A DNA stretch of 64,000 nucleotides from an uncultured Alphaproteobacteria bacterium (lineage in GTDB: Bacteria > Pseudomonadota > Alphaproteobacteria > Rhizobiales > Xanthobacteraceae): positions 148,687-212,686 of the forward strand of contig CAVSFV010000033.1 in the NCBI GenBank assembly GCA_963727325.1, in the 5' to 3' direction. Positions 8,633 to 40,868 of the stretch are shown one piece after another. The stretch's first letter is position 1, and each line of letters begins with the position of its first letter. Both the position numbers and the translations under genes were made by a program. The notes beneath the pieces were generated by a model. The model did no database searches and was not told the DNA's origin. It was given only the letters and a program-made list of their open reading frames with translations.

Positions 8633-10187
8633 CCGAATGGTCCCGCCCGCCCTGCAAACGAGCCGTCAGCTCCTGAGCCAATTCACGGAAAGCCCGACGC
8701 TCCACGGGGCTCAGACTGGGCGTTTTCGGTTCGGACATCCCTGGTCGAAACAGCACAACATTGGCGGCGGGTGCGGCGCCCAGCGGCGGGCGCTGCGGCG
8801 GTCGCACACCCTGCGCTTCTTCTGCGGATGGCGATGGGGACACCGCGGCTTTGGTGTCAGCGGCCGTCGCCTCTACCGGACCTGGATGAGCCAGAGCGCC
8901 ACCGTTGCTGGTAGCGGGCGGTTCGGGCCGCGCCATGAAGCCGATCGGGCGCTCGCGGCGCGCGTGGGCGAGTTCGTTGATGCGAGCGATGTCGCGACAG
9001 ACGCCGAAACCCCGGTAGCCGCGAAAGTGCCGCTCGCGATCGAACACCGGCAGTCCCGACAGTTCGACCGCAAGTCGCGTGTCGCCATCGTCAACTGGCC
9101 AGGAGACGGTGATGCCGCTCCAGGTTTCGCGCGTGGCCACGGCACGCGCCACCTGCTGGTCCGGATCGAGCTTCAGTTCCGCGGCGATCTCGCTCCACAA
9201 CCGGCCGAACGCGGCCGTGGTTTGCGGCCCAGTCAATTCGATGAACTCGTCCGAACCCACGACGAAGCGCCCATCGGCGTCCATTTGCCAGACGAAGCGC
9301 AACGGATGACGCCGCTCTACAACTGGCTCCGCCGGCGAAGGACTGCTTACCGGGCTCGATTCTGATTCTAATTCCGACTCTGATGGCGTGGCGGCAGAAG
9401 CTTTTGGCTCAGCCGCCGGCGGAAGTACTGGCGGCTGGGTACGCATCAGTCCCAACTCCGGCTCTGGCGTCGGTGCCGGCTCTACTCGCGGTGAAGCACT
9501 CTCCACGGCGCTAACGCTGCTCAATTCATCGCCGAACGTCGCCAGCAGGACAGCCGACGCGCCGCTACCGAGGCGCCGCAGGGTAACGGGGCCATGATTT
9601 GTTGTTGCGTCAGCGCCGCCAGCCGCAAGGGCTTGAGCGGCGGTCGCGGTCAGCCCAAACGCGGACAACGTTGGGGTTCCGGCAAATCGCTTCTGCGCCT
9701 CCGCAGTGGCGGCGAGCAGCGTGCCATCCGGTGCGAACGCCGCCTGCGCCTCGGATTGGTCTGAGAACAGACGCTTGACCCTCTCGCCAAGCGGCAGCGC
9801 TGGTCCCGCGGGCTCGTTGGCGACGACCAGTACCGCCGGCGAGCCGTTGGGCAACGAGAAACGCGAGCAGACGCACGTAAGCGTGTGACCAAAGCTGGCG
9901 CCGAAGCCCCGCAGTCTTTCAAGTCGTGCTTGCCCGGTCGATGGCAGCGTTTCAGCGAGGCGGACAATTGCCACGGCCGCGGGTTGTTTTGCCTCGAAGC
10001 GCCGACCGGTGAGTGCGGTGGTATTCGCAGCGCCGAAGATCGCCGCGCCGACCGCATTGGCCCAGAGAATCCGGGAGCCGTCGGCACTCCACAGCCACGC
10101 AGGCGATGGGCTCGTCGCGTGATCGACGAACTGAGCCCAGAGTCGCGGGTCGCGCGACAGGGCAAATTCTGACTCCGCGATCGGCAT
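8583..10187 (-). CDS. PAS-domain sensory protein without an output domain. Likely the N-terminal part of the downstream kinase.
   Basis: 534-aa ORF with an ATG start at 10187. PAS-like segments (WLWSADGSRILWANAVGAAIFG; RFVWQMDADGRFVVGSDEFIELTG) and Ala/Pro-rich linkers. Overlaps the kinase ORF by 50 nt in another frame. Confidence 0.6.
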   Translation of the reverse strand: MPIAESEFALSRDPRLWAQFVDHATSPSPAWLWSADGSRILWANAVGAAIFGAANTTALTGRRFEAKQPAAVAIVRLAETLPSTGQARLERLRGFGASFGHTLTCVCSRFSLPNGSPAVLVVANEPAGPALPLGERVKRLFSDQSEAQAAFAPDGTLLAATAEAQKRFAGTPTLSAFGLTATAAQALAAGGADATTNHGPVTLRRLGSGASAVLLATFGDELSSVSAVESASPRVEPAPTPEPELGLMRTQPPVLPPAAEPKASAATPSESELESESSPVSSPSPAEPVVERRHPLRFVWQMDADGRFVVGSDEFIELTGPQTTAAFGRLWSEIAAELKLDPDQQVARAVATRETWSGITVSWPVDDGDTRLAVELSGLPVFDRERHFRGYRGFGVCRDIARINELAHARRERPIGFMARPEPPATSNGGALAHPGPVEATAADTKAAVSPSPSAEEAQGVRPPQRPPLGAAPAANVVLFRPGMSEPKTPSLSPVERRAFRELAQELTARLQGGRDHSVADSIGEHSAGGGSSG

Positions 10188-11953: not shown

Positions 11954-13199
11954 ATGCCCGTGAACCGCGCGACGACATTGACGGCGTTCAGGAACGCACC
12001 CGCGCTGCCGGACTTAAGCCGCGCGGCAGCAGCGCCAAGCGTTGAGCGCCTGCGCGAAACGCCGGCGAAACTGAATTTCCACATCTACGGCGATTTGACC
12101 GCAATCGAGAGCGATTGGCGGCGCTTCGAGCGAAAAGCCGATTGCACCGCGTTCCAGACTTTCGATTGGCTCTCGGCGTGGCATCGAAATATCGGGCTGC
12201 GCCAGGGCGTCCACCTGGCGATCATCGTCGGCCGCTACAGCGACGATGAAATCGCTTTCATCATGCCGTTCTGCGTAGAGCCGGAACGGCTGGCACGACG
12301 GTTATGCTGGCTCGGACAGAAGCTGAGCGACTACAACGGACCGCTGCTGGCGCCCGACTTCTCGCAACGCGTCCCGCGCGAAAGCTTTCTCGCTCTCTGG
12401 CGGGAGCTGAAGGCGCAGATGCAATGCGATCCGCTGTTGCGTTATGACTGGATCGAGTTTGAGAAGATGCCGGAAACGATCGGCACTCAAATCAATCCAT
12501 TCACCTTTCTCCGGGTCGCACTGAATGCCAGCGGCGCACATCTGACGCATCTCGCCGATGACTGGGAAAAATTCTACACCGCCAAGCGCTCGTCCGCGAC
12601 ACGCCGCCGCGACCGCGCCAAGCGCCGGCATATGTCAGAATTCGGCGAGGTCCGCTTCGTGACCGCAGCCGGGCGCGGACGATACCCGGCGCACGCTCGA
12701 AACGCTGCTCGAACAAAAAAGCCGGTCGCTCGCGCGCCGGGGAATTGCCAACATCTTTGCCCCGCCCGGACACCGCGAGTTTTTTCTCGACCTCGCATCA
12801 AATCCGCAAAGCCGGCATCTGTTTCACATCAGCCGAATTGATGTTGGCAAATCGTGCGCGGCTGCGAACTTCGGCATCATGTTCGGCGATCGCTACTACC
12901 ACGTGGTCGCCAGTTACGACGACGGCGATATCGCGCACTACGGACCTGGCGCGCTTCATTTGCGCGAACTCATGGCTGAAGCGATCAGAATGAGGCTGAA
13001 ACGCTTCGATTTCACGATCGGCGACGAGCCGTACAAACTGGAATGGTCCGATACCACTCTCAACTTGTACGACTTCGCGGCCGCCGCGACTTGGCGTGGC
13101 TTACCCGCGCGAACCGCTTCAGCGGTGCGACGCCGGATTAAACGCTTCATCAAACAAACCCCATGGGCATGGCGCTTGGCTTCTCGTGCGCGGTCCGCG
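11954..13199 (+). pseudogene. CelD/BcsL (FemAB-like) GNAT acetyltransferase-fold protein, frameshifted near 12663-12675. The 3' boundary is uncertain because no stop codon occurs before the ATP-grasp module.
   Basis: ORF 11954..12841 is family-like up to ...EVRFVTAA, then becomes junk. The frame of ORF 12879.. is open from 12663 and reads ADDTRRTLETLLEQKSRSLARRGIANIFAPPGHREFFLDLASNPQSRHLFHISRIDVGKSCAAANFGIMFGDRYYHVVASYDDGDIAHYGPGALHLRELM...DFTIGDEPYKLEW. Confidence 0.65.
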
Positions 13200-14454
13200 A
13201 TGGGCCCGCTGTCGCGGCCGAAATTCCTGTCTCGATCACATGCCCACGAAGCAGCCCGTTTACGCGGCGCGGCGACTACACAAGCGGTCGCCTGCGTCAT
13301 GGGTGATATGGATCTATTGCGGCCGCTGGTCCTGGCCGGCGTTCCTTGCGCCGTCGTGACGCGGCCGGGTGTCCCCTCGCTCTACTCCCGATACGCACAA
13401 TCTCATCTGGTCTGGGATGATTATTCGAAGGACACCGAGGTCCTGGTCGACGCGTTGGTGCGCTTCGGCAAGGCGCAGCCCGAGCGCCCGGTTCTGTTCT
13501 ATGAAGAAGACAGCCAAATTCTTCTGATCTCGCGGTTTCGCGAACGCTTGAAAGAGGCTTTCCGCTTCGTCATTGCCGAAGCCAAGCTCGTCGACGATCT
13601 TCTCGATAAAGGACGCTTTCAGCTCCTCGCGGAGCGCCATGGTTTCGCGGTGCCGGTGGGACGGCGTTTCGACCCCGCGAGCCCTCGAAGCTGAGAATCT
13701 CGGGCTTGCGTTCCCGCTGATCGTTAAGCCGCTGACCCGGCTCAAGCTCTGGACCGACACTTTCGGACTGAACAAGGCCATTAACGTCGAAAACGCTGAG
13801 GCGTTGCGAAGCTTGTGGCCGCAATTGCGCACAATTGGCCTCAAACTTTTGGCTCAGGAATTCATCCCCGGCGGAGAAGGCCGGATCGAAAGCTACCACT
13901 GCTACGTGGATCAACGCGGCGAAATTGCCGGCGAATTCACCGGTCGAAAGATCCGCACTTATCCGGTGTGTTACGGCCACACCAGTGCGCTGGAGATCAC
14001 CGATGCCGACGATGTGCGCCAAAATGGACGCGCTGTCGTTGAGGCACTGGCGCTCACCGGAGTGGCCAAACTCGACTTCAAGCGCGACCCGCGCGGCAAT
14101 CTGCGTCTTTTGGAAATCAATCCTCGCTTCAATCTGTGGCATCACGCCGGAGCCGTTGCCGGCGTGAACATTCCGGCGCTGGTTTACGCCGACTTGGTCG
14201 GCATCCCGCGACCACCGGCCGCGCAAACCCGCGCCGGCGTCCGCTGGTGCCGGATGTGGAAGGATCTCCCGGCCGCGCGCTCCGCCGGGATGCCGCTGAG
14301 AGCGTGGCTGCCCTGGGCGTTCACCTGCGAAGCCAAGTCGACTTTGTCGTGGGACGATCCGATGCCGTTTTTGCGATCGACACTGCATCGCGCGGCCGGC
14401 CATTACCTCGGACGCGAGCAAGCAGGCGCCTGGCACCGGCAGAATTGTGGCTGA
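13200..14454 (+). pseudogene. ATP-grasp domain protein, frameshifted near 13670-13690. It is in frame with the upstream GNAT module with no intervening stop.
   Basis: The N-terminal part (frame of 12879..13694) reads ...VACVMGDMDLLRPLVLAGVPCAVVTRPGVPSLYSRY...FQLLAERHGFAVP. The C-terminal part (ORF 13573..14454) reads LEAENLGLAFPLIVKPLTR...LLAQEFIPGGEGRIESYHCYVDQRGEIAGEFTGRKIRTYP...VAKLDFKRDPRGNLRLLEINPRFNLWH (ATP-grasp fold motifs). Confidence 0.65.
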
Positions 14455-14580
14455 GTCTGGCGTCGGGCCGTATTGGCTGACACCGCGCTTCTTCCCACGG
14501 CACCGCGGGACGCGCTAAACAATGATGGTGCGCCGTCCGACATTGCCATCCGGCGCGCGGCGCAACCGTTGAACACCGTG

Positions 14581-15504
14581 ATGAACACCAATTCGTTCTG
14601 GCCGGACCTGCCGCTGACGGCGTGGTCCGATACCTGCGAGACCCTGCATCGCTGGACGCAGGTCGCAGGCAAGGTGCGGCTCAAGTCGACCCCGCTGGTC
14701 AATCATTGGTGGAATGTGACGTTCCATCTGAATTCGCGCGGCCTGGTCGCACCGGCGAATATTTATAATGGGCGCAGCTTCGATATTGTCTTCGACTTCG
14801 TCGATCATCTCCTTCGTGTTGCGACCAGCGACGGCAGGGTCGAAAGCTTCGCGCTTGCGCCGATGTCGGTTGCCGATTTCTATGCGGAGTTCATGGCGCG
14901 TTTGCGCCGCCTCGACATCGACATCCACATCTGGACGATGCCCAGCGAAATCGAAAATGCGGTGCCGTTCGAACAGGATCGCGCGCACGCCCAATACGAT
15001 CCGGAATATGTGTCGCGCTTTCAACGAATCGTCGTTCAGAGCGCCCGCGTGATGAACGAATTCCGCGCCCGCTTTATCGGCAAAGTCAGCCCGGTGCATT
15101 TCTTCTGGGGCAGTTTCGATCTCGCGGTCACGCGGTTTTCCGGCCGCACCGCACCACCGCCTCGAAGCGTCACGCCGAACGTCGCCGGCTGGGTCATGGC
15201 GGAAGCGTATTCGCACGAGGTTTCGAGCTGCGGTTTTTGGCCGGGCAACGGCGGTTACGGCCGCGCTGCATTCTATGTCTACGCTTACCCGGAGCCGTCG
15301 GGTTACGGCGACACGCAATTGCGGACGCCAGAGGCTTTCTACGATAAAAACCTGGGCCAATTCATTTTGCCGTACGACGTTGTTAGACAGTCGCGCGATC
15401 CCGATGCGCTATTGCTCGGTTTTCTGCAAGAAACCTACGAGGCCGCGGCTAACCTTGCCGACTGGGATCGCAAAAGCCTCGAACGCGGGGCTGCGCGCCA
15501 ATAA
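14581..15504 (+). CDS. DUF5996 family protein. The ORF is open from 14473; the ATG at 14581 fits the usual family N-terminus.
   Basis: NSFWPDLPLTAWSDTCETLHRWTQVAGKVRL...NHWWNVTFHLNSRGL...FFWGSFDLAVTRFSGR match the pattern I associate with DUF5996. Confidence 0.75.
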   Translation: MNTNSFWPDLPLTAWSDTCETLHRWTQVAGKVRLKSTPLVNHWWNVTFHLNSRGLVAPANIYNGRSFDIVFDFVDHLLRVATSDGRVESFALAPMSVADFYAEFMARLRRLDIDIHIWTMPSEIENAVPFEQDRAHAQYDPEYVSRFQRIVVQSARVMNEFRARFIGKVSPVHFFWGSFDLAVTRFSGRTAPPPRSVTPNVAGWVMAEAYSHEVSSCGFWPGNGGYGRAAFYVYAYPEPSGYGDTQLRTPEAFYDKNLGQFILPYDVVRQSRDPDALLLGFLQETYEAAANLADWDRKSLERGAARQ

Positions 15505-15528
15505 TTTTGGGGTGGATCGGCAACCGTT

Positions 15529-17583
15529 ATGCGCATCGGCATCCGCCTCGCGATTTCCAGTCTGGTGCTGGCGTCGATCATCGTCAGCGCGATCGGCGTG
15601 CACCTGTTGTGGTGGCGAACCGCTGAGGCGAACAGCCGCGCGCTGGCGACGACGATCGACGAGCAGATCGTCTCGGCGGTGCAGAAAGAACTCAACACCA
15701 TCACGACCCAGGCTACGGCCGCGCACACCGCGATTCGCACTCTGTTCGTGCAGAATGTGCTCGGCGCGCGCGAAGCCGACAAACGCGAATTCGTCTTTCT
15801 GTCGCAGCTGCAATCGCAGCCAAGCATTTCGTGGGTCGCATTCGGGTTTCCGAACGGAGATTTCTTCGCAGCGCACAAGCTCGGCGATCTGAGCCTGGAA
15901 ATGATGGAGATCGCGCGCGTCGACGGCGTGATCAAACGGCGCGTCGACGCTTATCAGGTGGTCGTTGGCGACATTCAATTCGAGAAACGCCGGTTCGAAG
16001 ACACCAACTACGTTGTTACCGATCAGGAATGGTACCGCAAAGCCATCAAGAACGACGATCCGGCATGGTTCGAAGTCTCTGACCTGCCGGTGGGGTTGCG
16101 TCCATCGATCGTCTATGCCGGCCCGATCGACGTCTACCAAAAGCGGCAGGGCGTGCTTGCGGTCATCATCGAAAACACCCGGCTCGCACAATTCCTCTCG
16201 CAACTCTCCGTCGGCAAGACCGGCGCGGCTTTCATCCTGGGCCGCGACGGGACCGTTATCGCCGGCCCCGACCCCGATGCCGACGAACTCAAAATGCAGC
16301 GCTCGAATCAGCCATTGCTGCCGATCGCCCAAGGGGCGATGAAGGCGGCCGGCAGTTCGTACAGCAGCACCGGCAAGGTGGCGCACCCCATGCGTTTCGT
16401 CGCCGATGCGAACGCCTACGCGGTAACTTTAACACCGCTCGATTTTCCGGGCTGGACGCTTGCGACCGTCATTCCGGAAGCGGAGTTTTTAGGGCCGATC
16501 GAAACGACGATCCGTTATTTGGTCATCGGCCTGGCGCTTCTCATTGTTGTTGCCGGCATTTTTTCAGCATGGCTGGCCCGACGGATCATTGCAGGCCCTT
16601 TAATTACGGTGGTTGACGAGATCAAACACGTCGAGCGCTTTGAGCTCGACCAGGTGCGCCGACATCCATCGCGCGTTGCCGAACTCGAGAACCTGTCGAA
16701 CGCGATTGCCGATATGGCGGGCGGCCTTGCCGCCTTTCGCAAGTACATACCTGCGGATCTGGTAAGGATGCTGCTGCGCGAGGGCGTCGAGCCGCGACCC
16801 GGCGGCTCAGTACGGACCCTCACGGTGATGTTCACCGATATTGCCGGCTTTACCGGCCTGTCCGAGCGGCTCGGCGACCAGATCATCCCGCTGTTGTCCG
16901 GCTACCTCGATGTCATGTCGCGCGAGGTGAACTCCCATGGCGGTACAATCGACAAATTTATCGGCGACGCGGTGATGGCGTTCTGGGGCGCACCGATGAC
17001 CAACGCCGATCACGCCGTCGACGCGTGCCGTGCGGCACTGGCCTGCCAGCGGTCGCTTCAAGCGTCCGGGCTGACCGACGACGGCGGCCGGCCGCTCAAA
17101 GCACGGATTGGCGTCAATTCCGGCGATATGCTGGTCGGCAACATCGGATCCGAGTTCCGCCTCAACTACACCGTCATCGGTGATGCCGTGAATGTCGCGA
17201 GCCGCCTTGAGGGCGCCAACAAGGAGTACGGCACCGATATCATCATCGGCGAAGAAACGCGGCGGTTGGCGGGAGATCGTATCCACGTCCGCGAGCTTGA
17301 TCGGCTCATGGTGTACGGCCGCGCCGGCGGCCTCGCCATCTATGAATTGCTCGACGTCGCCGAACACGGAGCCGGGCCGCCTGGTTGGGTTGCACTCTAC
17401 GACTCTGGTCTGGCGGCCTACCGCGCGGGCGATTTTGCCGGCGGCATGATTTTCTTCCAGAAGCTTTTGGCCGAGCGGCCGTCTGACCCACCGGCTCGCA
17501 TCATGCTCGAACGATGCAAACAATTTGCCGCCTGCCCCCCGGGAAAGGAGTGGGAAGCGACGAACGCGATGAAAGTGAAGTAA
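15529..17583 (+). CDS. Membrane adenylate/guanylate cyclase with a periplasmic Cache-like sensor, HAMP and class III cyclase domain.
   Basis: 684-aa ORF with an N-terminal TM segment, a roughly 280-aa extracytoplasmic region, a second TM segment and a HAMP-like linker. Cyclase core: LTVMFTDIAGFTGLSE...GGTIDKFIGDAVMAFWGAP...RIGVNSGDMLVGNIGS..RLNYTVIGDAVNVASRLEG. Confidence 0.9.
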   Translation: MRIGIRLAISSLVLASIIVSAIGVHLLWWRTAEANSRALATTIDEQIVSAVQKELNTITTQATAAHTAIRTLFVQNVLGAREADKREFVFLSQLQSQPSISWVAFGFPNGDFFAAHKLGDLSLEMMEIARVDGVIKRRVDAYQVVVGDIQFEKRRFEDTNYVVTDQEWYRKAIKNDDPAWFEVSDLPVGLRPSIVYAGPIDVYQKRQGVLAVIIENTRLAQFLSQLSVGKTGAAFILGRDGTVIAGPDPDADELKMQRSNQPLLPIAQGAMKAAGSSYSSTGKVAHPMRFVADANAYAVTLTPLDFPGWTLATVIPEAEFLGPIETTIRYLVIGLALLIVVAGIFSAWLARRIIAGPLITVVDEIKHVERFELDQVRRHPSRVAELENLSNAIADMAGGLAAFRKYIPADLVRMLLREGVEPRPGGSVRTLTVMFTDIAGFTGLSERLGDQIIPLLSGYLDVMSREVNSHGGTIDKFIGDAVMAFWGAPMTNADHAVDACRAALACQRSLQASGLTDDGGRPLKARIGVNSGDMLVGNIGSEFRLNYTVIGDAVNVASRLEGANKEYGTDIIIGEETRRLAGDRIHVRELDRLMVYGRAGGLAIYELLDVAEHGAGPPGWVALYDSGLAAYRAGDFAGGMIFFQKLLAERPSDPPARIMLERCKQFAACPPGKEWEATNAMKVK

Positions 17584-17700
17584 AGACGCAACCGGTTATT
17601 ATCCCGCCCTTCACTTTTGCCGCGAACCGGGCGACACAATTGTGCTATGAAATAGGCGTTTCCTCGGCTTCGACAGCCGAAGTTTCGGAAGGGATCGCCC

Positions 17701-18018
17701 GTGAATACAAAAAACATGACTGCAAAAAGCGCGCTGGCCGCCGCTATCGCCAGTTCCTTTGCCACGGCGCTCGCCATAATCGCCACGCCGGCACATTCAG
17801 CTCCGAAGCCGCCGCAACCGACGATGGACAAATGCTTCGGCATCGCTTTGAAGGGCGACAATGACTGCGCCGCCGGCCCTGGCACCACATGCGCGGGCAC
17901 GGCCGCTGCCGATTACCAGAGCAATGCCTGGAAGTACGTGCCGAAGGGAACGTGTGCGACCGTGGTGACCCCTAAGGGTAAAGGCTCGCTTGAGCCGAAC
18001 AAATCCGACCCGTCATAG
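17701..18018 (+). CDS. bufA: DUF2282 family secreted Cys-containing peptide (BufA1-type bufferin RiPP precursor).
   Basis: 105-aa ORF with GGAAGGGA upstream of the GTG start. Sec signal peptide ...[13 protein letters not shown]. Core [47 protein letters not shown] has four Cys. Confidence 0.85.
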
Positions 18019-18025
18019 ACGTTCC

Positions 18026-18883
18026 GTGTCTGACGCTTCGCACTTGCCAGCGCGCGCCGGCGTCGGCTTCAAGCCTCAGCATTTTCGCGACATCATCGCA
18101 GCACCGCAACCGATCGGTTTCTTCGAGGTTCACGCCGAGAATTACATGGGCGCGGGAGGACCGCCGCATGCGCGGCTCGGCGTCTTGCGCGAGCGCTACG
18201 CGCTCTCGATCCACGGCGTCGGGCTTTCGATCGGCTCAATGCAGCCGCTCGACCGCGCTCATCTCGCGCGCCTCAAAATCCTCTGCGATCGCTATCAGCC
18301 GGAAAGCTTTTCCGAACACCTCGCCTGGTCGTCGCACGACGGCGTCTATCTCAACGATCTCCTGCCGTTGCCATACACCGCGGAAACTTTGGCCCGCTTG
18401 GTGGAGCATATCGACGAGGTGCAGACAACGCTGGGGCGAACAATGTTGCTCGAAAATCCGTCCCGCTACGTGCGCCTTGCTGAAAGCACAATGCCGGAGG
18501 TCGAGTTCCTCGCCGACGTATCGAGCCGGACCGGGTGTGGGTTATTGCTTGACGTCAACAACGTTTTCGTTTCGGCCAAGAACAGCGGCGCAACGCCACT
18601 GTCGTATCTGGATTCGTTTCCATTCGATCGGGTTCGGGAGATCCACCTCGGCGGACATCATGAGGAAACCGATGAGGCCGGAGCGCCGCTGCTGATCGAT
18701 GATCATGGTTCGCCGGTCGCGAACGCTGTCTGGATGCTTTATAAACACGTCATCAATCGGGTCGGCCCGATCGCAACTTTGATCGAATGGGATAACGACA
18801 TTCCGGACTGGCCGACATTACGCGACCAGGCCGCGGTGGCCGGCAAGATCCTGACCGCGGCGTCGCGAGCGTCGGCCGCGTGA
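18026..18883 (+). CDS. bufB: DUF692/UPF0276 multinuclear non-heme iron oxidase (MNIO, MbnB-like; BufB). The ORF is open from a TTG at 17990; the GTG at 18026 avoids overlap with bufA.
   Basis: [13 protein letters not shown]...[19 protein letters not shown]...[12 protein letters not shown]...FSEHLAWS...LLENPS.Y...[13 protein letters not shown]...EIHLGGH are hallmarks of the DUF692 TIM-barrel family. Confidence 0.9.
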
Positions 18884-19653
18884 CCGCGAACGTACCCGCG
18901 TCGTTCGAAGGTTGTTTTGCGCGCGCACTGCTTGACCCGTTGGAGCCGGTCCCTCGCAGCATCACCACCGAACGCGCCGGATCGCCGACGCGGCGCTTTG
19001 CAATCCACCGCAACAATGTGGTCGTGAGCCTGATCAAAACGCTGCGGGCGCGGTTTCCCGTGGTCGAGCGAATTGTCGGCGCAGAGTTTTTCGTCATGAT
19101 GGCGCGGGCTTTCGTTGCGAAGAGACCGCCGCGCACGCCGATCCTGACGACTTATGGCGATGAGTTTCCCGACTTCATTGCTGCATTCGAGCCGGCGCGC
19201 CAGGTCGCTTATCTCGCCGATGTCGCGCGCCTCGAAGCTGCGCGCTCCCGCGCCTATCACGCAGCCGATGCCGTGCCGGCCGACCCAAGCGCTTTTGCTG
19301 TGCTCGATCCCGAGACTGTAAGTGAAATACGGGTCACACTGCACCCTTCCGCCGAAATCGTTCGGTCGCCACATCCGATTGTCACCATCTGGGCGATGAA
19401 TTCGGGCGAGCACGAGCTTGCCGCAATCGAGGATTGGCGCGGTGAAGACGCGCTGGTGGTGCGCCCGCATCTCGAAGTGGAGGTGCGCTTGTTGCCGCCG
19501 GCAGGCGCTATGTTTCTGCTTGCGCTAGGCTCGGGGCGTACGATCCGCGAAGCGGCAGAGGCTGGATTTGCCGATCACCCCGAATTTGATCTCAGTCGCA
19601 GTCTGGCCGGACTGATGGGGTCGGGCGTCGCGGTCGAGATCGTCGCGCCGTAG
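18880..19653 (+). CDS. bufC: DUF2063 domain protein (MbnC-like partner of the MNIO; BufC).
   Basis: The GTG start overlaps the bufB stop (GTGA). [38 protein letters not shown]...PP..P.L..YG..FPDFI fits the DUF2063 N-terminal pattern. Confidence 0.85.
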
Positions 19654-20725
19654 CGGCGTTAGCCCTTGCCGGGTTTCCGACCGACGCCGTTCGCCCCGCT
19701 CGGCCGCCTTCGATTTCGCGCCGCACCAGCGCCGCGCCCTCGGCCATGGCCTTAATCTTGGCGAAGGCGACCACACGCGGCAGGTATTTCATGCCGCAAT
19801 CCGGCGCTACGACGATGCGCTCCGCAGGCGCAAAAGGCAGAGCGCGACGGATCCGGTCGGCAACGGTCTGCGGCGTCTCCACATTCATGTCGGCGAGATC
19901 AATGACGCCAAGAATGATCGTCTTCGACGGCAACGCTTGCAAGACTTTCAGATCGAGTTTGGGCTGGGCCGATTCGATCGATATTTGTTGCGCCTTGCAG
20001 TTTTCCAGTTCCGCGAGGAATGAATATCCTGAAGGCTTGCCTCGCACCAGCGCGGCGTAGCCGAAGCACAGATGCACCGCGACCGTGCCGGTCACGCCTT
20101 GCAGCGCCCGATCGAGAGCCTTGAGGCCGTAGCGCCGCGCGTCATCCGGGTGCTGCTGCATCCACGGCTCGTCGAGCTGCACGATATCGGCGCCAGCAGC
20201 GAACAGATCGGCGATCTCGGCGTTGACGGCGGCGGCATAGTCCATCGCCATTGCTTCAGCGTCACCGTAGAACTCATCTTGAGCCTGCTTACTCATCGTA
20301 AACGGTCCCGGCAGGGTCGCTTTAATCGTGCGGTCGGTGTTGGCGCGCAGCACTTTGAGGTCACGCACCTCGACCGGGCGCGTCCGCCGAATCGGAGCGA
20401 CTACGCGCGGCACCGGAATCGGCTGTCCGGTCCGGTTGATCGTTGTGCCGGGATTGTCGGCGTCGATACCTTCGAGCGCCGTGGCAAAACGGTTTGAATA
20501 GCTTTCGCGCCGCTGCTCGCCGTCGGTGATGATATCCAGCCCGGCACGCTCCTGATCGCGGATCGCGAGGATCGTGGCGTCGTCCTGCGCGGCTTCAAGT
20601 CTACCGGGGGCGACCAGCCAAAGATCGTCGGCGCGTGCCCGCGGCACCTGCTTTGAAAGCTTGCCGCGGTCGATGAGCCATTCCGGCTGCGGATAGGAGC
20701 CGACGAGCGAAGTCGGTAGCAGCAT
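19592..20725 (-). CDS. Cobalamin-independent methionine synthase II family protein (MetE C-terminal-domain-like). The 3' end is suspect.
   Basis: MLLPTSLVGSYPQPEWL...DIITDGEQRRESY...VQLDEPW...HLCFGY...VAPDCGMKYLPR are typical of the MetE-like/UROD-fold family. The last ~36 codons are Arg/Pro-rich and overlap bufC by 62 nt. Confidence 0.8.
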   Translation of the reverse strand: MLLPTSLVGSYPQPEWLIDRGKLSKQVPRARADDLWLVAPGRLEAAQDDATILAIRDQERAGLDIITDGEQRRESYSNRFATALEGIDADNPGTTINRTGQPIPVPRVVAPIRRTRPVEVRDLKVLRANTDRTIKATLPGPFTMSKQAQDEFYGDAEAMAMDYAAAVNAEIADLFAAGADIVQLDEPWMQQHPDDARRYGLKALDRALQGVTGTVAVHLCFGYAALVRGKPSGYSFLAELENCKAQQISIESAQPKLDLKVLQALPSKTIILGVIDLADMNVETPQTVADRIRRALPFAPAERIVVAPDCGMKYLPRVVAFAKIKAMAEGAALVRREIEGGRAGRTASVGNPARANAATARRSRPRRPTPSVRPDCD

Positions 20726-20751
20726 AGGTCCTCTGAAATTCCCTCGCGAGG

Positions 20752-22029
20752 CTACTTCGCCTTCGCATAAGGGTAAATCAGGTCGCCGGTTCTCTGGTCG
20801 GCTGGACTGAGCACGGTCTGATTACTCATGCCTCGCCACGTTTCGAGGTTCGCGGCGTCGGTGATGTCGTGATACTGCACCTGCAGCGATCGTGAGCCGA
20901 CCCATTCGCCATATTGTCCGAACCTGATGTTGTCGGCCATGATGGTTGTGAACGCATGGGTATGCATGTATTCGGCCAACTTTTCATCGTTGAGCGTCTT
21001 GGCGCCTTCGACCGCTTCCCCCAGCAACTGGAAATAGGCGTAGCCCCAACCGCCCAGATAATATCCCAGCGGATCGATGCCTTCGGCCTTGGCGCGCTCC
21101 TGATAGATTTTGAAGAAGGCGGCGGCCGGCGCCATTAGTTTCGGCGACGGCACCCAGGTCTCGTAATTCACCACACCATTGAGCTTGGTCTTGAGCTTTT
21201 CCTTGAACACGGTCGATTGCAGTCCGACCATGGCGCCGCCAAGCATCTTCGGCGTGAAATTGAGCTCATTCGCCGACTGCAGGATGCCAACAGAGCTCAA
21301 CGGATAGGAACAAACAACAACAAGATCGGCATTAGCGGCCTGCACCGCGCGGATAACCGGCGAGAAGTCAGTCGTGCCCGGCGGGAAAGTTTTGTCGTAG
21401 ATAATGTTGAAGCCGTAGATTTTCGAGTTTTCACGAGCGCCCTCGCAGGCGTTGCGAGCGAACTCGGCATCCTCGGCGACGAGCGCAACCGTTTGCGGCT
21501 TTGGCTTTTGCTCGGCAGCGGCCTGAAAGTAGCCGTCCGTGAACGATCTGCTTGGATTCTGGCCAGCCGAAATCATCGAGAAGTAGCGCGAATAGTGAAA
21601 CTCGTGATTGCCATCGAGCGCGAACAGGCCGATCAAAACCTTGCCTTTCTGCATAACGACGGGAATCGCCGGCGCCACCAGATTGGTTCCATAAGGTCCG
21701 TTGAGAAGGTCGACCTTGTCGACGTCGAGAAGCTTCGTGTAGATGCCGGGTATATTCGCGGCATTGGACTGATCGTCGTAATTGACGAACTCGACCTTGC
21801 GGCCAAGCAATCCGCCCTTGGCGTTGATTTCCTCCTGCCAGATTTTGGCCCCGAGCAGCGCCTGTTTGCCGTTCGGCGCCAGCGGACCGGTGAGCGCAAG
21901 TGAAAAACCGATCTTGATTGGCTGGTTGCTCTGCGCGGAAACCGGAGCGGGCGTGAGAGCAAAACCGGCAGCGGCAACGATGGCCGCGATCGCGGTGGCA
22001 ACAAACTCCCGTCCTAAACGATGAGCCAT
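20752..22029 (-). CDS. ABC transporter substrate-binding protein, Leu/Ile/Val-binding (type I PBP) family.
   Basis: ATG at 22029 preceded by GGAGG. Signal peptide ...ALTPAPVSAQ, then IKIGFSLALTGPLAPNGKQALLGAKIWQEEINAKGGLLGRKVEFVNYDDQSN. Confidence 0.9.
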   Translation of the reverse strand: MAHRLGREFVATAIAAIVAAAGFALTPAPVSAQSNQPIKIGFSLALTGPLAPNGKQALLGAKIWQEEINAKGGLLGRKVEFVNYDDQSNAANIPGIYTKLLDVDKVDLLNGPYGTNLVAPAIPVVMQKGKVLIGLFALDGNHEFHYSRYFSMISAGQNPSRSFTDGYFQAAAEQKPKPQTVALVAEDAEFARNACEGARENSKIYGFNIIYDKTFPPGTTDFSPVIRAVQAANADLVVVCSYPLSSVGILQSANELNFTPKMLGGAMVGLQSTVFKEKLKTKLNGVVNYETWVPSPKLMAPAAAFFKIYQERAKAEGIDPLGYYLGGWGYAYFQLLGEAVEGAKTLNDEKLAEYMHTHAFTTIMADNIRFGQYGEWVGSRSLQVQYHDITDAANLETWRGMSNQTVLSPADQRTGDLIYPYAKAK

Positions 22030-40058: not shown

Positions 40059-40868
40059 TTACTCGGTAGCGCGCCGGCTGCTTCGACGCGAGCGTCTTCG
40101 CACCGGCGACCGCTCCGAGGAGGACCGGTCGGCCAGCAGCACGGTCAATAGCGAGGAATGAACTTCGAGGCTGCCGTTGTAAGCGATGAAGCCAAGAGTA
40201 CGGAATTTGTTCATAAAGAAATTGACGTGCGATCGGGTCGTGCCGACCATTTCAGCCAGCATCACCTGATTGACGCCTCTGACAATCGGTTCCGGCCTGC
40301 CTTCCTGACCGAAATTGGCCAACAACAGCAGCACCCGCGCCAGCCGCTTCTCGGTCGAATTGAAGAGATGATCGATCAGATCCTCTTCCATACGGGCGCT
40401 TCGGGCTAAAATATGCGCGACAAACATATCTGAAAATGAGGGCTCGTCGTGAAGCAAGCGCATCATCTCGACCTTTTCGACCCGCATCGTCTCGCATTCC
40501 GTCATGGCGGTCATGGTCGACAAGCGTAGCGGCTGTCCGATCAGGCATCCTTCGCCGAAAAATTGGTCTGCCTTAAGGACTGCGACAACGGCTTCCTTGC
40601 CGAGGTCGGAAAAGACGGTGATTTTGATCTTGCCCCTTCTGATGTAGAAGACGGCATCTGCATCATCGCCTTGCGTATAAACTATTTCGCGCGGTGGATA
40701 TGTTGAGATGATCCGCCCTTTGGCGGTTGTCTCGAGAAACCGCGCAGGGAGGAACCCCGACGATTTCCTTACACTATAGGTCAGCGATCCCATCGGCGGC
40801 CATGCGTACGGTGTCGTACAGACTAAAGCACGAGCACCGCAACCCGGATGTGCCAAAGTGAACATCAA
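40059..40868 (-). CDS. Crp/Fnr family transcriptional regulator (cNMP-binding domain + HTH). The true start may be the internal Met at 40793.
   Basis: IVYTQGDDADAVFYIRRGKIKI...FFGEGCL...RLARVLLLL... and the HTH MLAEMVGTTRSHVNFFMNKFRTLGFI. The gene is about 45-50% GC in my hand counts, against about 64% for its surroundings. Confidence 0.85.
   Translation of the reverse strand: MMFTLAHPGCGARALVCTTPYAWPPMGSLTYSVRKSSGFLPARFLETTAKGRIISTYPPREIVYTQGDDADAVFYIRRGKIKITVFSDLGKEAVVAVLKADQFFGEGCLIGQPLRLSTMTAMTECETMRVEKVEMMRLLHDEPSFSDMFVAHILARSARMEEDLIDHLFNSTEKRLARVLLLLANFGQEGRPEPIVRGVNQVMLAEMVGTTRSHVNFFMNKFRTLGFIAYNGSLEVHSSLLTVLLADRSSSERSPVRRRSRRSSRRATE

Follow-up and report, generated by a model that had tools for sequence, protein, structure and literature searches.

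The DNA stretch analyzed here, referred to as the window, is a 64-kb part of contig CAVSFV010000033.1 from an uncultured Xanthobacteraceae bacterium, and its positions 17701-19653 (+ strand) contain three consecutive open reading frames (ORFs), which we name bufA, bufB and bufC. In the ORF list of the window, the three genes were found at the coordinates at which a first-pass annotation, made by a model from the sequence alone, had placed a bufferin-type cassette. Here we show that this trio has every sequence- and fold-level characteristic of a Buf1 bufferin cluster, and we consider it highly probable that the locus is a functional Buf1-type bufferin operon (bufA1-bufB1-bufC1) that works as its counterpart in Caulobacter vibrioides does. 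Bufferins, a class of peptides synthesized by ribosomes and modified post-translationally (RiPPs), also named captophorins, were presented in 2024 as a bacterial defence against copper that is very common yet had long been overlooked. The locus adds nothing new to bufferin chemistry, and public databases already annotate its relatives as members of the bufferin family. What was established for the locus itself are the gene identities, the operon architecture, the register of the cysteines, the BufC fold and the action of purifying selection; its chemistry and copper binding are presumed by analogy with the characterized C. vibrioides system.

The three proteins and the cysteine register

Several lines of evidence support this view. 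Firstly, searches with profile hidden Markov models (HMMs) placed all three proteins in the families that the first-pass annotation had proposed, in each case above the curated cut-off. BufA matched Pfam PF10048 (DUF2282/BufA1) with an E-value of 1.6e-23 and 82.9 bits (cut-off 22.4), covering profile positions 1-51 of 53. BufB matched PF05114 (MbnB_TglH_ChrH) with 344.5 bits and the NCBIfam equivalog model NF050167 (MNIO_BufB, "MNIO family bufferin maturase", in which MNIO stands for multinuclear non-haem iron oxidase) with 381.2 bits (cut-off 310), and stayed below the cut-offs of the NCBIfam models for HvfB (226.8 versus 360 bits), MbnB (49.9 versus 325), ApyH and ChrH. BufC matched PF09836 (DUF2063/HvfC_N) over residues 12-100 with 86.1 bits (cut-off 27.2).

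Secondly, the cysteines of BufA are in register with those of characterized BufA1 peptides. As the first reading had noted, there are exactly four of them in the core: C45, C56, C64 and C85 (CysI to CysIV), corresponding to core positions 12, 23, 31 and 52 and encoded on the + strand by codons at 17833-17835, 17866-17868, 17890-17892 and 17953-17955, respectively. A tryptophan is at core position 44. The cysteine positions are identical to those of C. vibrioides Buf1, in which CysI (Cys12) and CysIV (Cys52) stay unmodified and form a disulfide bond, CysII (Cys23) and CysIII (Cys31) each bear a -4.03 Da thiooxazole modification, and Trp44 is located on a β-strand facing the metal site (PMC11626156). 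By analogy, CysI and CysIV of BufA are predicted to form a disulfide, and CysII and CysIII are the predicted thiooxazole sites. The spacing of 11-8-21 was present in all 58 BufA homologues extracted, and the four cysteines and the GxNDCxAGxGTTCAGT motif were invariant in two BufA alignments. BufA contains no EGKCG motif.

Thirdly, the sequence and hydropathy profile of BufA show an N-terminal n-region with lysine, followed by a hydrophobic core of 18 residues and an AHS|A site; there is no lipobox cysteine. The AHS|A site aligns with AFA|G of relatives in the family alignment. By sequence rules, BufA is thus predicted to carry a Sec / signal peptidase I signal peptide that is cleaved at AHS|A, as had been proposed at first reading. 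The AlphaFold2 model of BufA was used for secondary-structure register only; this low-confidence model has strands at core positions 9-13 and 44-48 and a short helix containing CysIV, as published for Buf1 (PMC11626156). A search of the Protein Data Bank (PDB) with the BufA sequence yielded only a chance match (E = 0.17).

Fourthly, BufB aligns to the solved MNIO structure 3BWW (E = 1.9e-38) with conservation of the family motifs, and it keeps every His, Asp, Glu and Asn column that is invariant in 28 diverse BufB sequences (H36, E38, N39, H63, E97, H98, E143, N144, D176, N178, N179, H207, D225, H227, E254 and D256). In the case of BufC, neither its single sequence nor a 43-sequence profile matched an entry in the PDB. 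Its AlphaFold2 model has two domains, with a predicted local distance difference test score (pLDDT) of 84 and a predicted template modelling score of 0.79, and its top Foldseek matches in the PDB were TglI (8HCI_A, E = 7e-6, with 256 aligned columns; 8HI7_A, E = 5e-5) and NGO1945 (3DEE, E = 3e-4). TglI is the partner of the MNIO TglH, and 3DEE is the founding DUF2063 structure. The match with these MNIO partners spans the full length of the model, which also showed weak matches to TbiB1, a protein with a RiPP recognition element (RRE). We therefore identify BufC as a DUF2063 partner protein with a second domain that, judging by the model, is RRE-like.

These results also bear on an older database reading, according to which the DUF2282 protein is an integral membrane protein and the DUF2063 protein a DNA-binding regulator, both unrelated to peptide modification. 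In Pfam, the two families are still described as "Predicted integral membrane protein" and "Putative DNA-binding domain", and JGI uses names of the same type. However, the sole hydrophobic stretch of BufA is its cleavable N-terminal signal sequence, the BufC model matches the MNIO partner TglI, and when BufA1 modification was reconstituted in vitro, BufB and BufC were both needed and together sufficed (PMC11626156). That study already refuted the older reading for the family, and we give it hardly any credence for this locus.

Architecture of the operon and gene starts

All three genes are on the + strand. The bufA gene (17701-18018; GTG start, 105 codons) comprises a signal peptide region, delimited from the hydropathy profile and the family alignment (residues 1-33; 17701-17799), and a region for the 72-residue core peptide plus the stop codon, assigned from PF10048 and the cysteine register (17800-18018). 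It is followed by bufB (18026-18883; GTG start), encoding the 285-residue MNIO (DUF692) bufferin maturase, and bufC (18880-19653), encoding the 257-residue DUF2063 partner protein, of PME type 1. The gap between the bufA stop and the bufB GTG is 7 nt, and the bufB stop and bufC start overlap as GTGA, through which bufC is translationally coupled to bufB, as the first reading had it.

Two start codons required attention. Public gene calls start bufA at ATG 17716, giving a protein of 100 residues. The ATG start of its relatives aligns with the GTG at 17701 of the window, which is preceded at a distance of 6 nt by the Shine-Dalgarno-like sequence GGAAGGGA (17687-17694, + strand); the 105-residue form is therefore reasonable. 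In relatives, a Shine-Dalgarno element of the GGAAAGGA type is kept at the same position. Compared with all relatives, the window has a 15-nt insertion in the n-region of the bufA signal peptide (17716-17730), which creates the in-frame ATG picked by the public gene callers. The bufB ORF had initially been listed from an alternative TTG at 17990 (297 residues). Public calls use GTG 18026, and since relatives align from residue 1 of the 285-residue form, this GTG is the likely start.

Identical or near-identical copies of the locus are present in several soil metagenome assemblies, and the nearest named records are metagenome-assembled genomes (MAGs) of Xanthobacteraceae. Close relatives of the proteins are already labelled "BufA1 family periplasmic..." and "DUF2282 domain-containing protein" in UniRef and NCBI. 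In some loci (L057, 10811-11990; also L071, L082 and L087), which come from Paraburkholderia, Ancylobacter, Pseudomonas citronellolis and a Rhizobiaceae MAG, bufB and bufC are separated by about 1.1 kb. The ORFs in the spacer of L057, the one locus checked, had no Pfam match.

Proposed mechanism and points that weigh against it

In the mechanism that we envisage, BufA would be produced as a 105-residue precursor, transcription starting at a conserved TGCTATGAA element or resulting from read-through from an adenylate cyclase gene located upstream. BufB, the multinuclear non-haem iron oxidase, would act in the cytoplasm with its partner BufC and turn the two central cysteines, Cys56 and Cys64 (Cys23 and Cys31 of the core), into 5-thiooxazoles. 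The peptide would then be exported by the Sec pathway, signal peptidase I would cut after Ser33, and the outer cysteines, Cys45 and Cys85, would pair as a disulfide. The folded 72-residue peptide would bind Cu(I)/Cu(II) in the periplasm, thereby buffering copper excess. The calculated monoisotopic mass of the core before modification is 7279.48 Da, and a value near 7269.4 Da (10.08 Da less) is predicted for the mature peptide.

Several observations weigh against this reading. First of all, the steps of thiooxazole formation, export and copper binding are carried over from a single model organism, and the AlphaFold2 model of BufA is of low confidence (pLDDT 56.7). Furthermore, in two sister assemblies (L004 and L005) bufC is split into two ORFs by single-base indels (at about 19302-19304 of the window); this could reflect long-read assembly errors, or pseudogenization or dispensability in part of the population. 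Expression signals are also scarce. The sigmaF motif GTAACC-N16-CGAA was not found upstream of bufA in the window, even with up to one mismatch, and a promoter scan revealed no canonical sigma-70 promoter. Control in trans by a sigma factor encoded outside the window may apply. The terminator scan returned one terminator-like site, inside bufC and below chance expectation, hence no terminator, and it is because of this that we include read-through from the cyclase gene as an option. Finally, no cop, cus or cueR-type genes or other copper-resistance genes were found across the window, based on the called-gene annotation of sister contigs.

This last point touches on the possibility that the locus produces a bufferin-like modified peptide with a role other than copper buffering, directed at another metal (gold, mercury, cadmium or chromium) or at redox or sulfur stress. 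Besides the lack of copper-homeostasis genes and of a copper-responsive regulator in the window, such a role would fit with the fact that gold, chromium and cadmium elicit a response of the homologous gig and sigF regulons (PMC3511200, PMC12452194), and with the existence of MerC-bufferin fusions. On the other hand, the thiooxazole-bearing loop of BufA is nearly identical to that of copper-binding relatives, and the sole affinities measured in the family are for copper, with dissociation constants of ~6e-15 M for Cu2+ and ~7e-20 M for Cu+ (PMC11626156). On balance, we regard a non-copper role as unlikely.

Absence of DoxX and purifying selection

The absence of a doxX gene had been singled out in the first-pass annotation, and an iterated DoxX HMM indeed detected no DoxX ORF anywhere in the 64-kb window. 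For comparison, we used the 80 species-level genome loci whose BufB is closest to that of the window (58-82% identity); 77 of them were assessable for DoxX. In 71 of these 77 loci doxX follows bufC, and it is missing only in L011-L014, L015 and L078. As L011-L014 are the nearest relatives of the window (79-82% BufB identity) and share its wider synteny, the absence of DoxX is a lineage-specific loss that has persisted through several speciations. Among cyclase-selected metagenome loci, 6 of the 43 that were assessable lack DoxX; five of the six belong to a different sub-lineage, and DoxX loss has therefore recurred.

When the window was compared with four to five related species, the ratios of nonsynonymous to synonymous substitution rates (dN/dS) were 0.05-0.14 for bufA, 0.11-0.19 for bufB, 0.17-0.27 for bufC and 0.07-0.16 for the cyclase gene. 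Thus, the cyclase gene and bufABC are all four under purifying selection (dN/dS 0.05-0.27). The comparisons include pairs inside the DoxX-less subclade, and the DoxX-less operon itself is maintained by selection. The persistence of a minimal bufABC operon under purifying selection in several soil species agrees with the genetic dispensability of DoxX: in C. vibrioides, DoxX is dispensable for copper protection and for Buf1 modification, and the buf2 cluster has no DoxX (PMC11626156).

On the basis of these data we can also judge whether the cassette is a decaying remnant, silent or useless after the loss of DoxX and of its operator. Losses there are: in addition to DoxX, the palindromic operator discussed below is gone, a stop-loss has extended the neighbouring gene into bufC, and the frameshifts in the two sister assemblies affect bufC. 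Against this, all three ORFs are intact in the window, and five or more species-level genomes retain the DoxX-less arrangement, with dN/dS far below 1. The start codon, the Shine-Dalgarno element and the promoter block are conserved as well, and five further DoxX-less loci arose independently and kept bufABC. Decay is, in our opinion, very improbable.

The first-pass annotation had called several features of the locus unusual, and this assessment did not hold for most of them. DoxX occurs in 67.8% of >24,000 published MNIO-partner clusters and is hence absent from about 32%, and NrsF is present in just 14.1% (PMC13097082 Table S1). The absence of DoxX is thus uncommon among the nearest relatives but unremarkable for the class. 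The next gene is, as described earlier, convergent and overlaps bufC, by 62 nt. This gene (19592-20725, - strand) encodes a MetE-C-terminal-like methyltransferase that has the MetE catalytic domain only (Meth_synt_2, 124.1 bits, residues 3-331) and is not part of the system. It is found in just part of the subclade, being absent from L011, L013 and L014. The overlap is explained by a single stop-loss substitution in the MetE-like gene: at 19700-19702, the TGA of L006 and L012 is replaced in the window by CGA (with G at 19702 of the + strand), which adds 36 unconserved residues. The convergent overlap is thus incidental and not a design feature.

Comparison with known systems

The closest characterized counterpart is the buf1 operon of C. 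vibrioides (bufA1B1C1D1, CCNA_03363-03366; PMC11626156). It contains the three core families in the same order, and its precursor has a Sec signal peptide, the cysteines at core positions 12, 23, 31 and 52, Trp44 and the predicted secondary-structure elements at the same positions. In contrast to buf1, the window lacks bufD (DoxX), a nearby sigF-nrsF pair and the GTAACC-N16-CGAA promoter; it has a dCache adenylate cyclase gene directly upstream, and its core peptide has 72 residues versus 68 in Buf1. The buf2 cluster of C. vibrioides (Buf2, or BUF_6/12Cys, family) resembles the locus in having three genes, no DoxX, an MNIO with a DUF2063 partner and a Sec-exported precursor (PMC11626156), but the Buf2 precursor has six cysteines and belongs to another family than the four-cysteine DUF2282 precursor of the window. 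The gig operons of Cupriavidus metallidurans and Legionella pneumophila, now recognized as bufferin clusters (PMC12452194, PMC5413113), share the DUF2282-DUF692-DUF2063 core, and gig clusters have a metal stress link. They include DoxX and are induced by gold and copper, whereas the window has no DoxX and no known metal-responsive control was found in it.

More distant are the systems for EGKCG-repeat captophorins (HvfABC/oxazolin, fontiphorin and gonophorin; PMC11252979, PMC13097082), which also combine an MNIO with a DUF2063 partner and install Cys-derived copper-binding heterocycles. Their precursors carry the EGKCG repeats that BufA lacks, and BufB falls short of the HvfB cut-off. The methanobactin system MbnABC likewise pairs an MNIO with a partner protein, acts on cysteines of a ribosomal peptide and makes a copper chelator. 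BufB scores far below the MbnB cut-off, and methanobactin, unlike a bufferin, derives from a leader-peptide precursor with no Sec signal, contains an oxazolone/thioamide heterocycle and is secreted as a chalkophore instead of being retained in the periplasm.

An adenylate cyclase gene is conserved upstream of the operon

The gene upstream of bufA (15529-17583, + strand) encodes a membrane sensor adenylate cyclase of 684 residues and ends 117 nt before the bufA GTG. It had been described at first as a Cache-HAMP cyclase and cited as a mere neighbour. The Cache domain, the cyclase domain and the distance were right, but HAMP was not detected: residues 330-430 gave no Pfam match for it at E <= 1, and only a weak match (E = 0.008) to the transmembrane helix 2-HAMP region of NarQ. 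The protein consists of an N-terminal transmembrane helix, a periplasmic dCache_1 domain (53.4 bits), a second transmembrane helix, a linker, a class III cyclase domain (Guanylate_cyc, PF00211; 75.2 bits) and a tail resembling tetratricopeptide repeats. The closest solved relative of its catalytic domain is Pseudomonas aeruginosa CyaB (3R5G, E = 2.8e-33), a class IIIb membrane adenylate cyclase, and the motifs FTDIAGFT, TIDKFIGD and NYTVIGDAVNVASRLE are conserved in the alignment of the two. The catalytic set of class III cyclases is present, with a pair of metal-binding Asp residues, a Lys plus Asp/Thr that specify the substrate, and an Asn and an Arg for the transition state. These roles, and the reading of Lys...Thr as the signature of class IIIb adenylate cyclases, were assigned from established knowledge of class III cyclases. 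CyaB and the cyclase of the window share the Lys...Thr pair and the metal and transition-state motifs; the latter has a periplasmic dCache_1 domain, while the membrane sensor of CyaB is MASE2. We know of no link between CyaB and bufferins.

There is good comparative evidence that the cyclase gene and the buf genes form a conserved gene module, and the cyclase is the feature that is conserved with the operon. In 12 species-level genome loci, the window among them, and in the MAG loci L007 and L008, the gene immediately upstream of bufA, and on its strand, is an orthologue (74-90% identical). The window and L011-L014 lack DoxX; L016-L020, L024, L042 and the MAG loci L007 and L008 have it. Beyond the cyc-bufABC(D) block, the genes fall into at least seven unrelated genomic contexts. 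In addition, bufA comes next, at a distance of 119-298 nt, after 70 of the 74 metagenomic cyclase orthologues (76-91% identical) that could be assessed. Clear exceptions are L115 and L141 (cyclase, no buf genes) and L167 (a bufC fragment directly after the cyclase gene), and L112 is borderline. The homologue search returned only cyclases at least 80% identical, and the edge of the cyclase-buf linkage lies beyond its reach. Conversely, L025 has no cyclase gene (upstream of 9555) and L015 only a C-terminal cyclase remnant (about 9280-9380); both keep the palindrome described below and a TGCTAT element. Two published landscape surveys of these clusters mention no cyclase.

In the subclade of the window, an ATP-grasp/acetyltransferase-like gene, a DUF5996 gene (14473-15504) and the cyclase gene are on the same strand with short gaps (11954-17583, + strand; 24 nt between the DUF5996 and cyclase genes), and these three genes and bufABC may be one long transcription unit.

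A palindrome upstream of bufA

Loci from several alphaproteobacterial orders show strong enrichment, in the region upstream of bufA, of a TCAC-N6-GTGA palindrome, whose extended form is (c/g)cATCAC-N6-GTGAcg. The exact TCAC-N6-GTGA sequence occurs 26 times in 1.47 Mb of genome loci, and 18 of these occurrences are within 400 nt upstream of bufA, seven of them at loci without the cyclase; the loci concerned include L007, L015-L020, L024, L025, L042, L039, L050, L052, L069, L077, L080 and L083. In 534 kb of cyclase-selected metagenome loci there are 74 occurrences, 66 of which are in the cyc-bufA intergenic region, and among L094-L173 the palindrome is present between the two genes at 66 of the 70 cyclase-linked loci. 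It is followed by the -10-like element TGCTATGAA at 54 nt or, about one helical turn less, at 40-43 nt, or by a sigmaF-type GTAAC -35-like element at 33-34 nt. The centre of the palindrome is thus upstream of the presumed start by about 75 or 64 nt, which is the geometry of a class I activator site. Both promoter types occur after the palindrome inside one clade (L094-L173, L011-L042), which suggests promoter swapping with the operator kept in place. The half-site differs from those known for the cAMP receptor protein (CRP) of Escherichia coli and for rhizobial Clr.

In the window, the block GACACAATTGTGCTATGAA (17633-17651, + strand) is conserved in alignments with relatives and is a putative promoter. 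On the same strand, the -10-like element TGCTATGAA (17643-17651) is invariant in 9 of 9 aligned sequences, and the degenerate palindrome remnant GACACAATTGTG (17633-17644) abuts it; in sister lineages, the palindrome sits further upstream of TGCTATGAA. The remnant has a position weight matrix score of 2.1, and 77 positions of the window score as well; we therefore do not claim a functional palindrome in the window, only a degenerate copy. Inspection by eye of the 117-nt intergenic region revealed neither E. coli-type CRP nor rhizobial Clr boxes. The intergenic regions of the subclade of the window (L011-L014, L094-L096) are 115-132 nt long and have a gap of about 55-66 nt with respect to the sister lineages. 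Judging from these alignments, the lineage has lost the upstream palindromic operator. A coupled loss of DoxX and palindrome was considered and rejected, because five DoxX-less loci retain the palindrome; the two losses are independent events.

Possible links between cyclic-nucleotide signalling and the operon

The conservation of the cyclase gene raises the possibility that the same bufferin operon functions within a four- or five-gene signalling module. The dCache domain would sense a periplasmic cue, for example copper, copper-loaded bufferin or a redox signal, the cAMP produced would control buf transcription through a dimeric CRP-like activator at TCAC-N6-GTGA, and the module would replace SigF-NrsF in this clade. 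The adjacency of the cyclase gene and bufA in the window, 11 further species-level loci (L011-L014, L016-L020, L024 and L042) and the two MAG loci, with varying flanks, is in line with this idea, as are the metagenomic orthologues, the intact class IIIb catalytic residues and the low dN/dS of the cyclase. Moreover, an adjacent sigF-nrsF pair is missing from all cyclase-linked genome loci, versus its presence in 41 of the 80 loci overall; upstream of bufA, the palindrome shows a huge enrichment, with fixed spacings about one helical turn apart; and a Crp-family gene is present in the window (40059-40868).

Several points speak against the idea. The synteny comes from a single clade (BufB at least 71% identical), and one ancestral juxtaposition could explain it. 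L025 and L015 have no cyclase or only its remnant, L115 and L141 have the cyclase without buf, and the palindrome is also present at seven loci without the cyclase. Its half-site is not the one known for E. coli CRP or rhizobial Clr. The subclade of the window has lost the palindrome, so that the model is inapplicable there in that form. The GTAAC -35-like element at many cyclase-linked loci hints at SigF control in trans, and published co-occurrence tables list no cyclases. We consider the signalling module rather doubtful. A functional link of any kind between the cyclase and buf, whether buf is controlled by cAMP or the Cache domain senses copper or bufferin, is a tentative proposal to which we attach a similarly low probability.

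Extended to the clade as a whole, the idea would be that a widespread soil Xanthobacteraceae-like clade has its bufferin operon wired to cyclic-nucleotide signalling, not to SigF-NrsF; that the dCache cyclase reports copper or bufferin status as cAMP; that buf is driven by a dimeric activator bound to the TCAC-N6-GTGA site, which is located upstream of the start by about 75 or 64 nt; and that the sub-lineage of the window has been further simplified by deletion of the operator spacing and DoxX. This scenario is somewhat less likely still. What the comparative evidence does provide are new, modestly interesting leads on bufferin regulation, which is little known outside Caulobacter: the cyclase that is kept beside the operon in an abundant soil clade, and the palindromic operator.

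Other regulators and neighbouring genes

The statement that no sigma/anti-sigma pair is nearby was borne out: HMMs built from buf-linked sequences detected no SigF-type sigma factor or NrsF ORF in the 64-kb window. Clustering of flanking ORFs and Pfam checks showed that extracytoplasmic function (ECF) sigma factors of the SigF type and NrsF adjoin bufA in 41 and 40 of the 80 loci, respectively, mostly in divergent orientation; about half of the sampled loci thus lack an adjacent sigF-nrsF pair, as does every cyclase-linked locus. A GTAAC-N17-CG(A/T)A promoter, like the sigmaF motif of C. crescentus, is present in 22 of the 36 loci of the SigF flanking-ORF cluster. An Rfam scan of 15000-21000 at E <= 1 returned nothing, and hence no known riboswitch or leader RNA. 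A small hairpin before the Shine-Dalgarno element was dropped as a feature, since the fold of 17640-17720 is not significant (z = -1.23).

Three other neighbours deserve mention. According to the annotation of sister contigs, a PAS histidine kinase is encoded 7-10 kb upstream. The Crp/Fnr-family regulator gene (cNMP_binding plus HTH_Crp_2; - strand) lies about 20 kb from the cyclase-buf block. Lastly, an operon for an aa3-type cytochrome c oxidase (COX2, COX1, CtaB, CtaG_Cox11-COX3 and SURF1) is located at about 49.7-56 kb on the + strand; it encodes copper-requiring enzymes, and its presence in the same window is probably a coincidence.

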